DNA of 64,000 nt from a phage. Shown here piece by piece: positions 21,685 to 24,952 of this stretch (positions are counted from its first letter, which is position 1; each line of letters starts with the position of its first letter). The position numbers and the translations under genes are program-made. Below the pieces are notes generated by a model, which was given only the letters and a program-made list of their open reading frames with translations, was not told the origin of the DNA and did no database searches. Location: assembly GCA_025611195.1 (NCBI GenBank), contig GCA_025611195.1_4718.2. One strand, written 5' to 3'.

Positions 21685-22218
21685 TTAATCTCCTTTGTGT
21701 TTTACGGACGATGTTAACCACGATGATCTTACAGTGAAACCCTCAGACTCGTAGAACGCCTGGGCTTCATCGTTATCGGCACGAACATCCAGGCCGATAG
21801 AATGCCCACCACATCGGTAAGCGATGTTACGTGCTTCATTCATCAAGGCGTGGCCGATCCCGCGTCCACGGTATTCCGGTTTTACAACAATCGATGTAAC
21901 ATCGTGAATGCCCATTTGGCTCTCTGTATTCACTTCCAAGAGGCCTACTGGTATCGAAGCGATGGCGTCGATCATAACGACCAACTTTGCGGTGTCCGGT
22001 AAACGCTTCTCTAATTCTAAGGCATCGTACTCGCGTTTTAAATCGGGGATATTCTCAAACATAAACGTGGTAGCCCATGCCTCTGATTCTACATCGTCGA
22101 GAATACGGTACAGCTCACGAATCTGTCGTTTATGCGGGTAAAGGTGTGGATCGGCAGCCGTTGAGGCGATAACGCAATAGAACGGCCGTTCATTAATAAC
22201 TACTGTTTTGATGCTCAC
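21685..22218 (-). CDS. GNAT-family N-acetyltransferase
   Basis: Acetyl-CoA binding motif VVKPEYRGRGIGHALMNEA and C-terminal AQAFYESEGF. Confidence 0.75.
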   Translation of the reverse strand: MSIKTVVINERPFYCVIASTAADPHLYPHKRQIRELYRILDDVESEAWATTFMFENIPDLKREYDALELEKRLPDTAKLVVMIDAIASIPVGLLEVNTESQMGIHDVTSIVVKPEYRGRGIGHALMNEARNIAYRCGGHSIGLDVRADNDEAQAFYESEGFTVRSSWLTSSVKHKGD

Positions 22219-22721
22219 GCTAAAATTCCCTCATTACCTAACAGTCGATTACGGTGACGTCGGTACATTTGACAAAGTGTTGTGATTTGATAAAGTTTGT
22301 TATAACGTAATTCGATACGTTTTTGCACCTCTTTCCATGAAAGTTTATCGTATTGCCGATAACGATGAATTTCATTCAACATACGAAGACGAGTAGGATC
22401 GGTATTCTTTATTGTTGTGAGCTTCACGCGTTGGTATCCACGCTGTAGTCCCGATTCAGAATACGTGACGCCAAACTCATCTTGAATGGTAGTAATTATC
22501 TCCCGCCATCGGCGCTTCTCGCCGTCACGTAAATGGACAACCCGCGATAAGATATCGTTCCGATTACGATGACTCAGTTTAATGTTAAGCATTGAAGCAA
22601 TCGCGCTGATTGCTCTCTGACTCCGCCCTAACGCTTCACCGATCTCTTTCGATGTCATGACGCCAGCGTTTCGGCGTATGAATGCGATTTCGGTTGTTGT
22701 GTATTCTTTACCTGCTGCCAT
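22215..22721 (-). CDS. Myb/GcrA-like HTH protein, tandem paralog 1
   Basis: Repeat YTTTEIAFIRRNAGVMTSKEIGEALGRSQRAISAIASML plus C-terminal W..I....EF......Y motif. ATGA overlap with the next gene. Confidence 0.6.
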   Translation of the reverse strand: MAAGKEYTTTEIAFIRRNAGVMTSKEIGEALGRSQRAISAIASMLNIKLSHRNRNDILSRVVHLRDGEKRRWREIITTIQDEFGVTYSESGLQRGYQRVKLTTIKNTDPTRLRMLNEIHRYRQYDKLSWKEVQKRIELRYNKLYQITTLCQMYRRHRNRLLGNEGILA

Positions 22722-23185
22722 TTTTTACCACGCGTGTTATAATAGTAACGCTGACAAAGATGTGTGTGATGGTACTCCCGTTTGAACTCGACATTGATAA
22801 TGCGAGTAACTTCTCTCCATCTGACCCCTTCATGTCGCAGTGCTGTGATACGGTCTGAAATTTTGCACCATTCATCTGGGTCGTATCGTCGCAGTTTATG
22901 GCGTCGTATTACGGAGGCGACACTCGCTCTCGATCGGCCAAGATGGTTTGACAGTTGTTTAACCGAGTATCTGTGGATATTGTCGCGAATATAGGAAATC
23001 TCGTTGTCCGTATATGCCTCATTGGTTCTTGACGAAGGGAACAACATATACAACTTATTCTTAATCGCGCTTTCTGTGCGTTGAAACACGGTAACCAGAT
23101 CACTAATCGGTGGTCTGGGTATCTGATCCGCGTAATTCTCGAGGCGTGAGAGTTCCTCATCTGTCCAGCGGCGGTACTTGCGCAT
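22655..23185 (-). CDS. Myb/GcrA-like HTH protein, tandem paralog 2
   Basis: Start moved to ATG 23185 (AAGGAG upstream). Repeats RRWTDEELSRL... and YTDNEISYIRDN...LSNHLGRSRASVASVIRRHKL. Confidence 0.7.
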   Translation of the reverse strand: MRKYRRWTDEELSRLENYADQIPRPPISDLVTVFQRTESAIKNKLYMLFPSSRTNEAYTDNEISYIRDNIHRYSVKQLSNHLGRSRASVASVIRRHKLRRYDPDEWCKISDRITALRHEGVRWREVTRIINVEFKREYHHTHLCQRYYYNTRGKKWQQVKNTQQPKSHSYAETLAS

Positions 23186-23660
23186 GGGCAACTCCTTTGT
23201 TTTTCGTGTAATAGCACCAACGTTGATACAACGCATGTTTATTCGTTGTAATCCCAAATTTAACAACAACGTCGTATGTGATAATATTCCAATTTTGGGT
23301 GACGTTAAGTCGTTCCGCGATAAACGCGATAATCGCTTCCCGTTCTTGCTTGGTTAACGCACGACGAATTCCATTAAGTCGTATAAACTGACGAACCGAG
23401 TCATACGAACGGTTTAAATCATACGCAATCTCCCGCAACGATTTTTGTCTGATTACAGACTTGATGTACGCACGTTCTTCTTCCGTATACGGTCGATGCT
23501 TCTGGCGTTGACGTATTCCCAAACGCCCCAGACACGCGTCGATGCTGGCGCGTGTTCGTCCTGCCTGTTGCGCGATTTCATCAATCGTCAGCGACGTGTT
23601 CAAGTACAGATGTGTAACATCTTTTAACTCATCGTTACGCCACGGCCGAGGTCGTCCCAT
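23157..23660 (-). CDS. Myb/GcrA-like HTH protein, tandem paralog 3
   Basis: RPWRNDELKDV...IDEIAQQAGRTRASIDACLGRL and YTEEERAYIKSV...IAYDLNRSYDSVRQFIRL. AAGAGGGA before ATG. Confidence 0.7.
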   Translation of the reverse strand: MGRPRPWRNDELKDVTHLYLNTSLTIDEIAQQAGRTRASIDACLGRLGIRQRQKHRPYTEEERAYIKSVIRQKSLREIAYDLNRSYDSVRQFIRLNGIRRALTKQEREAIIAFIAERLNVTQNWNIITYDVVVKFGITTNKHALYQRWCYYTKNKGVAHAQVPPLDR

Positions 23661-24138
23661 CTTGTATCCCTCTTTTCTTTCTATGATGCCACCAACGCTG
23701 ATAAACAGCTTGCTTCGTACGTGTTATGCCAAAATGCGCATTAACCCGTTCAGCAATGTGGTACCAATCCTGCGTTTCTTCTAACAATGCATCAACGAAG
23801 GCTATGAAGATCTTAGTATCATCCTCGCTTAACCGCTTGAAGCCATGGCGGTGTGCTATTGTTCGAATACTGTTTGGATCTCTGTTTAAATCGCGCGCAA
23901 GCTGTTTGTAACTTTTGTGCTTACAGTGTAGTCTGATATGTTCCAATTCATCGTCGCTGAAACGTTTATGCGGTTTACGGCGTTCGACGTTTAAGTACCT
24001 CAACCTTGATTCGATTGCTCCATACGTCGTTTCCATGATTTCCGCGATTTCACGGATTTTCAATTTCGGACGACGGTCGTACAATTTCAGCAACTGTTCG
24101 TCGTACTGACGATTCCATCGTCGTATAGGTGGTCTCAC
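23635..24138 (-). CDS. Myb/GcrA-like HTH protein, tandem paralog 4
   Basis: GTG start at 24138 with AGGAGAA upstream. RRWNRQYDEQLLKLY...IAEIMETTYGAIESRLRYL and FSDDELEHIRLH...LARDLNRDPNSIRTIAHRH. Confidence 0.65.
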   Translation of the reverse strand: MRPPIRRWNRQYDEQLLKLYDRRPKLKIREIAEIMETTYGAIESRLRYLNVERRKPHKRFSDDELEHIRLHCKHKSYKQLARDLNRDPNSIRTIAHRHGFKRLSEDDTKIFIAFVDALLEETQDWYHIAERVNAHFGITRTKQAVYQRWWHHRKKRGIQDGTTSAVA

Positions 24139-24151
24139 AACTAAGATTCTC

Positions 24152-24619
24152 CTATTCTACGCGTCTTAATGCCTGAGTGTAGTAAAGAGTATGAACTCCG
24201 CTTAACGTGTAATGGGTGTTAAATTCTTTATTGATGATATTCCGTATTCTCTCCCAGGTTTTCTTCTCTTTTCTAAGAGTATGTATTCGGTGATAAATCA
24301 TCTCTCGACGTTGCGCCTTGCATGCGACGATGCCGTAGCGGTAGCAGAGTTTAGCGATCGCGTCCACGCTACGATTGAACATTACCGCGGCTTCTTTCAC
24401 GCTGTGCGTCTTGAGATAATCGGCTAACATTACCCGCTCTTCGAAACAACAATAGCGATGACGCGACATGAGTTTCCAACGCTTGCGATTGCGGTTAATT
24501 CGACCTTGAACCGAACCTTCCGTTCGGCCAAGCCGTACCGCAATCTCTTGCATCGGGATACCGTTTCGATAGAGGGTAATCAACAACGCATCTTCTTCGG
24601 GTGTCCAGTCCTTGACCAT
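24152..24619 (-). CDS. Myb/GcrA-like HTH protein, tandem paralog 5
   Basis: KDWTPEEDALLITLYRNGIPMQEIAVRLGRTEGSVQGRINRN resembles the GcrA N-terminal HTH (WTDE...L...G.S...IA..LG..RNAVIGK..RL). GGGGTGG before ATG. Confidence 0.7.
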   Translation of the reverse strand: MVKDWTPEEDALLITLYRNGIPMQEIAVRLGRTEGSVQGRINRNRKRWKLMSRHRYCCFEERVMLADYLKTHSVKEAAVMFNRSVDAIAKLCYRYGIVACKAQRREMIYHRIHTLRKEKKTWERIRNIINKEFNTHYTLSGVHTLYYTQALRRVE

Positions 24620-24631
24620 AATGCCACCCCA

Positions 24632-24952
24632 TCAACGTCTTACTTTAAGCGGTATCTTGTTTCGAAAACAATAACACCGGATGGCATGTACGCTACGATT
24701 CATTATTTCAGCAATCTCTTTTAGCGTATGTTTCTTTGCAAGCACGGCAATCCTAACCCTTTCTTCTGGTGTGTAAGCTCCTCCACGAGGTGGCAGGTCA
24801 CCGCGTCGTTTCCTCAACCTGATGTAACGTGCGCGAATAGAGCACGGTGTTCGATTCATGCAACGTGCTACTTCTTTATAACTCGCTTTTGGTGACGTGC
24901 TAAGAATAAGCAGCAACGCTTCATCTTCTTTATCCGTCCAGCATTTACCCAT
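24632..24952 (-). CDS. Myb/GcrA-like HTH protein, tandem paralog 6 (two repeats only)
   Basis: [15 protein letters not shown]...[20 protein letters not shown] and [45 protein letters not shown] before ATG. Confidence 0.7.

Follow-up and report, generated by a model that had tools for sequence, protein, structure and literature searches.

The subject of this work is a tandem array of six minus-strand genes, here called P1 to P6 (22215-24952), found in 64,000 nucleotides of phage DNA (NCBI GenBank assembly GCA_025611195.1, contig GCA_025611195.1_4718.2; the whole stretch is referred to as the window). The six genes are true paralogues that encode small basic proteins (106 to 176 aa) composed of repeated modules of the helix-turn-helix (HTH) type, and the family label that suits them best is 'T5 D5-like tandem-HTH DNA-binding protein', DNA binding being a prediction. 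The array is of the D5-like kind in a changed form, with six split paralogues and an extra clade-specific module, in a nucleus-forming phage. P1 to P6 are probably phage DNA-binding regulators, and their most likely role is that of non-redundant binders of double-stranded DNA (dsDNA) controlling phage replication or transcription. An earlier reading of the same letters by a model without database searches (the first-pass annotation) had described the genes as Myb/GcrA-like and missed the closest phage family, T5 D5 (PHROG 323).

The gene array and its counterparts in phage Goslar

Bases 21000-27000 of the window show 92% nucleotide identity, over their full length, to Escherichia phage vB_EcoM_Goslar, a nucleus-forming E. 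coli jumbo phage of 237 kb that belongs to the Chimalliviridae (genus Goslarvirus). Goslar gp119 to gp114 are the one-to-one counterparts of P1 to P6. GenBank labels gp114 to gp119 as hypothetical proteins, and in RefSeq gp119 alone is labelled 'SANT/Myb domain-containing protein', gp114-gp118 being without such a label. Literature searches found no paper that mentions Goslar gp114 to gp119 and none assigning DNA-binding regulators to Goslar.

The six open reading frames (ORFs) are present as first described, and their paralogy was evidenced by all-against-all BLASTP comparisons, with 22-38% identity over 100-155 residues and bit scores of 35-89, P3 and P4 being the closest paralogues (32% identity, 88.6 bits). 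The proteins were cut into units of 46-58 residues and aligned, which yielded 17 units of three types (A, B and C), distributed as follows:

P1, 24632-24952, minus strand: 106 aa, homologue of Goslar gp119, modules A-B and no C; A at aa 3-48 (24809-24946), B at aa 58-104 (24641-24781).
P2, 24152-24619, minus strand: 155 aa, homologue of Goslar gp118, modules A-B-C; A 24476-24613, B 24320-24457, C 24161-24322.
P3, 23635-24138, minus strand: 167 aa, GTG start, homologue of Goslar gp117, modules A-B-C; A 23980-24123, B 23830-23970, C 23665-23835.
P4, 23157-23660, minus strand: 167 aa, homologue of Goslar gp116, modules A-B-C; A 23508-23648, B 23358-23498, C 23190-23363.
P5, 22655-23185, minus strand: 176 aa when counted from the ATG next after AAGGAG, homologue of Goslar gp115, modules A-B-C; A 23030-23173, B 22880-23020, C 22721-22888.
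P6, 22215-22721, minus strand: 168 aa, long form, homologue of Goslar gp114, modules B-C-C; B 22569-22709, C1 22413-22571, C2 22242-22412.

The first-pass annotation had assigned to each protein two repeats of the form W/Y-T-x-E...EIA..LGRS, which is correct for five of the six (P1-P5), P6 having one such repeat followed by two C modules. The third motif that it had noticed in five proteins, W..I....EF......Y, is present in P2 to P6, twice in P6.

The reading frames overlap by 8 nt at the junction between the upstream ligase gene and P1, 26 nt at P3/P4, 29 nt at P4/P5, 67 nt at P5/P6 and 4 nt between P6 and the downstream acetyltransferase gene, which agrees with the translational coupling proposed before; gaps of 12 and 13 nt separate P1 from P2 and P2 from P3, respectively. 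The strong Shine-Dalgarno sequence that had been attributed to every gene is found upstream of P1 (AAGGAG), P3 (TAGGAG), P4 (GAGGG) and P5 (AAGGAG); that of P2 is moderate (GGGGTGG) and that of P6 weak.

The 67 nt shared by the 3' tail of P5 (22655-22721) and the 5' end of P6 are read in different frames, and the same arrangement occurs in Goslar and in one Goslar-like relative (L006; retrieved loci are numbered with the prefix L). In another relative, L002, the P5 orthologue is without this tail and, with 152 aa, 24 aa shorter. Both GenBank and RefSeq place the start of Goslar gp114 (L001 4216-4722) at Met22, giving a protein of 147 aa in which the first helix of the B module is cut off. The long form of P6 (168 aa) is supported by the conservation of its N-terminal peptide EYTTTEIAFIRRNAG in four lineages, by L002, where the long start is available without overlap of P5, and by the AlphaFold2 (AF2) model of P6, which has a helix at residues 9-18, upstream of Met22. 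The P6 orthologues were called at 168-169 aa.

Module types, predicted fold and charge

The A module opens with W-T/N-x-x-E/D and has a long first helix, and the B module carries Y/F-T/S-x-x-E followed by S/T-x-K/R-E/Q-I/L-A and N/G-R-S/D-x-x-S/A-I/V. The C module has longer loops and an invariant Trp that opens helix 2, followed by ..F and Y/W. A hidden Markov model (HMM) of the repeat unit recovered 17 copies in P1-P6, the next-best ORF of the 64-kb window having an E value of 0.33, and it gave no match in the remaining Goslar genome (the Goslar 99-114 kb stretch being covered via the window scan). No repetition was seen at the DNA level within the array, indicating that the duplications are ancient.

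The structure prediction proposed in the first-pass annotation was carried out for P2 and P6, and the AF2 models (mean predicted local distance difference test, pLDDT, 84.5 and 80.9, respectively) contain nine helices each, arranged in three three-helix bundles. The predicted template modelling score (pTM) was 0.47 for both models, a low value which indicates rigid modules joined by flexible linkers and with a flexible relative orientation. The HTH nature of the C module rests on these AlphaFold models, as the sequence comparisons were not convincing: the HMM comparison of C with A/B modules was not significant (best E 0.003; 75% probability in hhalign), the C-module profile had no meaningful match in the PDB, and C had no sequence match outside the Goslar clade.

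All six proteins are strongly basic, with isoelectric points (pI) of 10.0-10.5 (10.4 for P1) and net charges of +13 to +16. Linkers rich in Arg and Lys are visible in the alignment, such as RKRWKLMSRHR, RRKPHKR and RQRQKHR.

Relationship to the D5 protein of phage T5

PHROG 323 ('transcriptional regulator, D5-like') was the top PHROG family for all six proteins, with E values of 2.1e-19 (P1), 3.1e-18 (P2), 4e-14 (P3), 9.5e-15 (P4), 1e-16 (P5) and 1.3e-10 (P6), in matches that span part of the 319-position phrog_323 profile and in a collection without curated cutoffs. In a positive control, T5 D5 (T5.118, 255 aa) matched phrog_323 with an E value of 1.2e-71, as a member of the family, and its sequence consists of repeated W-T-P-E...EIA..GR...I..K...LG modules. 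A second HMM, derived from A/B modules of the Goslar clade only, had T5 D5 as its sole match in the T5 45-80 kb region (E 9.7e-9). D5 and the proteins described here have in common tandem three-helix HTH modules of the type W-T-x-E...EIA..GR...I..K...LG within one polypeptide. Taken together with the comparisons given below, P1-P6 appear to share a broad repeat family with T5 D5, the DNA-binding domain of GcrA and the archaeal proteins Cbp1 and Cbp2.

The likeness extends to gene position. In T5, D5 directly follows the NAD-dependent ligA and ligB, before the helicase, primase and polymerase genes (L009 20365-23078, equivalent to T5 65364-68077), and the array of the window likewise lies directly downstream of an NAD-dependent ligase gene in a replication gene block. 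In the T5 record, D5 is annotated as a DNA-binding protein that is essential to DNA replication and late transcription and has a part in (early) shutoff; for dsDNA binding and the requirement in replication and late transcription, PMC12630848 cites a paper of 1979. D5 is also reported to be an HTH protein that AlphaFold3 predicts to bind retron msdDNA, and in mass photometry it remodels the retron complex (PMC13405049).

Variation, selection and recombination among Goslar-like phages

Orthologues of the six genes are one-to-one in every Goslar-like lineage retrieved. From the ligase to the acetyltransferase gene, the following layouts were observed:

Window and L021: P1 (A-B), then P2 to P6.
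Goslar: an extra gene of 235 aa (gp120, no Pfam match), then P1 to P6.
L005-L007 and L003: a P1 of 152 aa that includes a C module, then P2 to P6 (L003 is short and ends just after P3).
L002 and L004: a gp120-like gene, no P1, then P2 to P6 (L004, of 2 kb, ends in the gene after P3).

The total number of modules per array ranges from 15 to 18 across lineages. The 235-aa gene lies between the ligase gene and the array (gp120 at L001 6958-7665; L002 4807-5514) and is missing in the window, L021 and L005-L007, in which the stop codon of the ligase gene lies within the start of P1 (24945-24952 in the window). The ligase/P1 junction, at the array head, is a hotspot of insertion and deletion. The variation in copy number that the first-pass annotation had proposed to look for in related jumbo phages was encountered within the Goslar-like group (loss of P1, loss of the C module of P1, insertion of the 235-aa gene).

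The ratio of nonsynonymous to synonymous substitution rates (dN/dS) against Goslar is 0.07-0.22 for P1-P6 (0.09 for P3) and 0.06-0.14 for neighbouring genes, indicating that all six genes are under purifying selection. In the comparison of the window with L002, the flanking genes and P6 are 86-100% identical whereas P2-P5 are 37-70% identical, P4 being the most divergent pair (37%) and P6 the most conserved of the six (95%). Synonymous divergence (dS) follows the same pattern, with values of 1.4 to above 3 for the 103-aa gene, the ligase gene and P2-P5 and of 0.1-0.6 for the flanks. These data delimit a mosaic segment (about 2437-7421 in L002, about 22655-27320 in the window), with recombination breakpoints near the P5/P6 junction and near an 80-nt gap at window 27320-27399. 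Within the recombined segment the amino-acid change of P3-P5 is 5-7 times that of the ligase, at a dN/dS of about 0.2. Rapid diversification of P2-P5 was considered as an explanation and rejected, since the dS values identify the segment as a recombined, much older allele with saturated dS, which accounts for the low identity of P2-P5 to L002 with no need of positive selection.

The third helix of each module was compared separately. Between paralogous modules the 13-residue third-helix segments are 14-34% identical, while between window and L002 orthologues they exceed the remainder of the protein in conservation (70% vs 57% identity; Fisher p = 7e-4), with a similar tendency in the L006 orthologues (84% vs 78%; p = 0.09). 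Conservation of the third helices within orthologues together with their divergence among paralogues fits a recognition surface of its own for each paralogue and argues against simple redundancy.

Comparison with GcrA, Myb/SANT, sigma-70 and Cbp proteins

A Pfam scan of P1-P6 returned only generic HTH families. The proteins have the fold of the GcrA N-terminal DNA-binding domain; in GcrA (PF07750; PDB 5YIU) this module occurs once, whereas here modules are repeated two or three times. Against PF07750, P2 scored 14.8 bits (cutoff 26.9) over positions 2-42 of the 155-position profile and the other five proteins had no match. The C-terminal sigma-70-interacting domain of GcrA was not found in P1-P6, whose whole length is filled by HTH modules. 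Membership in the GcrA family was rejected on both grounds, and the first-pass description as Myb/GcrA-like is retained at the level of the fold.

With respect to Myb/SANT, module A of P1 exceeds the Pfam gathering scores of PF00249 (Myb_DNA-binding; 32.4 vs 24.4) and PF13921 (Myb_DNA-bind_6; 35.4 vs 22.9), P2 remains under threshold (14.2 and 16.0) and P3-P6 have no match, so that the Myb/SANT threshold is passed by 1 of the 17 modules. Module B of P1 is above the gathering score of HTH_23. In the alignment, the three regularly spaced Trp/aromatic residues of Myb/SANT are complete in none of the 17 modules: A keeps the first Trp, B has Tyr or Phe in its place, and C keeps the invariant second Trp and often the third Trp/Tyr. 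Common descent with the eukaryotic Myb/SANT proteins (c-Myb R1-R3, CoREST SANT2, Cef1/Cdc5) beyond the HTH superfamily is not supported.

P2 and P3 pass the Pfam model Sigma70_r4_2 and thus contain an HTH of the region 4 type; of the three profile families that the first-pass annotation had proposed to search, Myb and sigma-70 region 4 were recovered, in P1 and in P2 and P3, respectively, and GcrA was not. In a rival reading, P1-P6 would remain in the cytoplasm and not enter the phage nucleus, and would bind the host chromosome or host RNA polymerase, for instance as sigma region 4 look-alikes, redirecting or shutting off host transcription. This host take-over is unlikely, though it deserves attention: P1-P6 have no Pfam match to region 2 (Sigma70_r2) and no GcrA C-terminal sigma-interacting domain, they score 12-19 bits against NCBIfam sigma models with cutoffs of 43-323, and their genes are located in a replication-type block coupled to the ligase gene, not among typical early host-shutoff genes. 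Sigma-70 membership was rejected on the absence of region 2 and on the scores of the full-length sigma models, far under cutoff. More generally, the NCBIfam scan of P1-P6 gave nothing close to any cutoff.

Among proteins of solved structure, the closest relative by sequence is archaeal Cbp2 (2LVS_A), the best sequence match of the family profile in the PDB (E 6.8e-9; profile positions 9-99, which include both modules and the linker). As in the proteins described here, imperfect HTH repeats with basic linkers are present twice in Cbp2 and three times in Cbp1; the Cbp proteins differ in being archaeal and in binding CRISPR repeats, while the present ones belong to a phage. In Cbp2 a basic linker tethers the two HTH domains and helps the protein to bind CRISPR repeats with high affinity (PMC3597662). 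The NCBIfam model HTH_Cbp1 (cutoff 140) was matched by P3 with 23.5 bits across all three modules and by P4 with 18.2 bits, and no CRISPR-like or other non-coding repeat array was found in the window. Cbp1 membership was rejected, given that the equivalog cutoff was missed and that there is no association with a CRISPR array.

The likeness to Cbp2 and Cbp1 is also pertinent to the possibility that P1-P6 are abundant, weakly specific proteins that coat and organise phage DNA in the EPI (early phage infection) vesicle or in the phage nucleus. T5 D5 binds duplex DNA cooperatively and is abundant according to the biochemical literature of 1979-1983, a behaviour that a coating function would share. 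Such a chromatin-like function is also consistent with the high positive charge of all six proteins, with their beads-on-a-string architecture and basic linkers, and with the fact that three-module Cbp1, together with Cren7, forms chromatin-like structures on CRISPR arrays (PMC10883916). However, the third helices, divergent among paralogues and conserved among orthologues, suggest distinct specificities, and non-specific coating would not need six different proteins. In addition, Shine-Dalgarno strength is uneven among P1-P6 and none of the six is mentioned among the abundant virion proteins of Goslar. Altogether, coating of phage DNA is regarded as a real but minor possibility.

Distribution of the module and of the array

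An exhaustive HMMER search with the family profile retrieved 15,213 proteins with E values of 0.001 or less, of which 129 were at 1e-30 or less. The module itself is therefore very common, and the unusual character ascribed to the locus in the first-pass annotation belongs to the six-gene array: the small A-B-C and B-C-C proteins and their array were found only in Goslar-like phages. A tblastn search of P4 against 50,697 phage records recovered Goslar only; word-indexed searches, one with the six-protein alignment and one with P6, among 5.8 billion proteins recovered Goslar-like contigs and two distant Myb-repeat proteins only; and a related-locus search with P6 gave Goslar and one 237.5-kb IMG/VR relative only.

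The best HMMER hits outside the Goslar clade are proteins of 300-900 aa with 4-9 matches to the A-B pair (E 1e-59 to 1e-30). These long poly-HTH proteins (e.g. P0025, 786 aa, encoded in L011) have no informative names, and their top PHROG is also phrog_323. They contain the same A/B-type module arranged head to tail, but with 8-13 or more modules fused in one polypeptide and no C-type module, whereas in the window the modules are split over six genes. In one case the genomic context is a siphovirus-like or plasmid-like contig. L011 (617-8632 of a 13.6-kb Logan contig, SRR27999948) carries tandem genes of 878, 786 and 570 aa with about 10-13 modules each, evidencing that tandem paralogy of poly-HTH proteins recurs outside the Goslar clade; downstream of them are genes for a sigma-70 factor with regions 2, 3 and 4, for a histidyl- and an aspartyl/asparaginyl-tRNA synthetase and for a Fic protein, and the contig may derive from a very large phage or from a reduced bacterial genome. 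On a bacterial chromosome, a protein of 451 aa with eight modules is encoded immediately upstream of cas6b (L012 8001-10358; L013 7724-10081), a location that echoes the archaeal CRISPR-repeat-binding proteins Cbp1/Cbp2.

By tblastn and BFVD searches, the module was seen in D5 proteins and in phage regulators of the 'GcrA-like' type; in HNH endonucleases and methylases it forms the DNA-binding part, and transposases that carry it are also among the matches. This distribution, together with secondary PHROG matches to the DNA-binding parts of HNH endonuclease families (phrog_1891, 8446, 7545) and with the variable 235-aa gene and indel at the array edge, would be compatible with P1-P6 being relics of selfish elements, that is, DNA-binding modules left from homing endonucleases or transposases with no role for the phage. 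Such an origin without function is very improbable in view of the purifying selection on all six genes, their one-to-one orthologues in every Goslar-like lineage seen and their tight coupling within the operon; moreover, no nuclease or transposase domain was found in or beside the array.

A function as decoys or counter-defence factors, whose targets would be nucleic acids of host defence systems (retron msDNA, CRISPR repeats or guide RNAs) and not genomic DNA, finds some precedent among the relatives of the family. T5 D5 is predicted by AlphaFold3 to bind retron-Kva2 msdDNA via its HTH, but as a trigger (PMC13405049), both Cbp1 and Cbp2 bind CRISPR repeats (PMC3597662), and the bacterial eight-repeat homologue adjoins cas6b. 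The 5-7 times faster protein-level change of P2-P5 relative to the ligase in the L002 recombinant segment might also be counted in favour of this function, except that the divergence is explained by the recombined segment with saturated dS and not by positive selection. As P1-P6 gave no match to PADLOC defence models and their dN/dS is well under 1, a decoy function is considered highly doubtful.

Proposed role and mechanism

The following is inferred for the six proteins: that they bind DNA, that they do so at specific sites, whether the DNA they target is that of the phage or of the host, and what their biological role is. Each protein is a chain of independent three-helix HTH modules, two or three in number, with short Arg/Lys-rich linkers between them, and in the proposed mechanism the third helix of each module would occupy the major groove. 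Linked modules placed on successive grooves, as in Cbp2, Myb R2R3 and Tc3, could read an extended site of about 15-30 bp per protein. The six proteins would bind different sites and would not be redundant, considering that their third helices differ between paralogues and are kept within orthologue groups. The genes would be co-transcribed and translationally coupled with the NAD-dependent ligase gene, as part of a replication-type block. The analogy with T5 D5 and the location of the array in a ligase-containing block lead us to expect targets on phage DNA, with an effect on replication and/or on a phage transcription switch. That the six genes encode small basic dsDNA-binding proteins which act on phage DNA in the control of replication and/or a transcription switch is given about an even chance.

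Several observations weigh against this proposal. The analogy with D5 is imperfect, as one gene encodes D5, which has about four modules and lacks a net positive charge, while the array comprises six separate genes with 2-3 modules each, a pI of about 10 and a clade-specific C module; likewise, hhalign comparison with D5 gave a weak match (68% probability, E 4.8e-5). Near the ligase genes of Serratia phage Moabite and Ralstonia phage RSL2 there are no HTH-repeat genes, so the link with the ligase may be coincidental and the gene order of T5 and Goslar is not general. The family was not found in other chimalliviruses, as far as the searches reach, and is accordingly not part of a conserved programme of nucleus-forming phages. 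No repeated DNA motif of the target type was detected in the intergenic regions of the window, which have no k-mer in common. Finally, SANT-type three-helix domains are able to bind proteins instead of DNA.

Neighbouring genes and other features of the window

The genes that delimit the array are the following:

24945-27011, minus strand: NAD-dependent DNA ligase gene (ORF, Goslar annotation and Pfam domains of orthologues), immediately upstream of P1 and coupled to it.
21685-22218, minus strand: GNAT acetyltransferase gene (Acetyltransf_1, E 2e-14), immediately downstream of P6.

A methyltransferase gene located downstream of the array (20556-21239) has weak, generic matches to class I S-adenosylmethionine (SAM)-dependent methyltransferases and barely reaches the cutoff of the FtsJ model (24.7 bits). 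No link to the HTH proteins was found for the acetyltransferase (21685-22218) or for this methyltransferase (20556-21239).

In some Goslar-like relatives a gene for a D12-class (Dam-like) N6-adenine methyltransferase is located four genes upstream of the ligase gene (L005 424-1250, L006 426-1250, L007 424-1250 and L003 714-1540). L006 has an intact copy (274 aa), in L003, L005 and L007 the gene is broken into two ORFs, and the window, Goslar and L002 lack it. Domains of the GcrA type can read methylated DNA, and this enzyme may therefore be relevant to the array.

In the search for candidate target DNA, the window showed neither non-coding tandem nor CRISPR-like arrays, sigma-70 promoters and terminators were not in excess, and no Rfam family was matched. 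A long minus-strand ORF, which probably encodes a repetitive structural (fibre-like) protein, includes at 2973-3787 tandem repeats that keep the reading frame (periods of 120 and 360 nt; 2.1-2.6 copies; 71-76% matches).

Implications

The timing of gene expression and replication in nucleus-forming jumbo phages is poorly understood. The counterparts of P1-P6 are the only tandem-HTH proteins of the D5/GcrA-like repeat family in the Goslar genome, and the selection acting on them, their position in the ligase block and the requirement for T5 D5, their nearest characterised relative among phages, in replication and late transcription make them concrete regulator candidates in a phage for which tools for knock-down, localisation and chromatin immunoprecipitation (ChIP) already exist. 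The value of the finding is limited by the confinement of the family to Goslar-like phages and by the inferred character of its function.

On a wider scale, one HTH repeat module is deployed in two ways, either as several small paralogues or as giant multi-repeat proteins, which bears on the understanding and engineering of modular DNA recognition. It can further be speculated, with less expectation than for DNA coating or host take-over, that P1-P6 constitute a multi-component DNA-reading set of the Goslar-type phage nucleus, each protein having, through its particular combination of recognition helices, its own class of sites on the phage chromosome, and that the set would govern the timing of replication and of the change from one of the two phage RNA polymerases to the other. 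If this were true, the six proteins would be lineage-specific transcription/replication factors, new for nucleus-forming phages, and their fused relatives with 8-13 or more repeats would represent a modular HTH repeat system that reads long DNA sequences.

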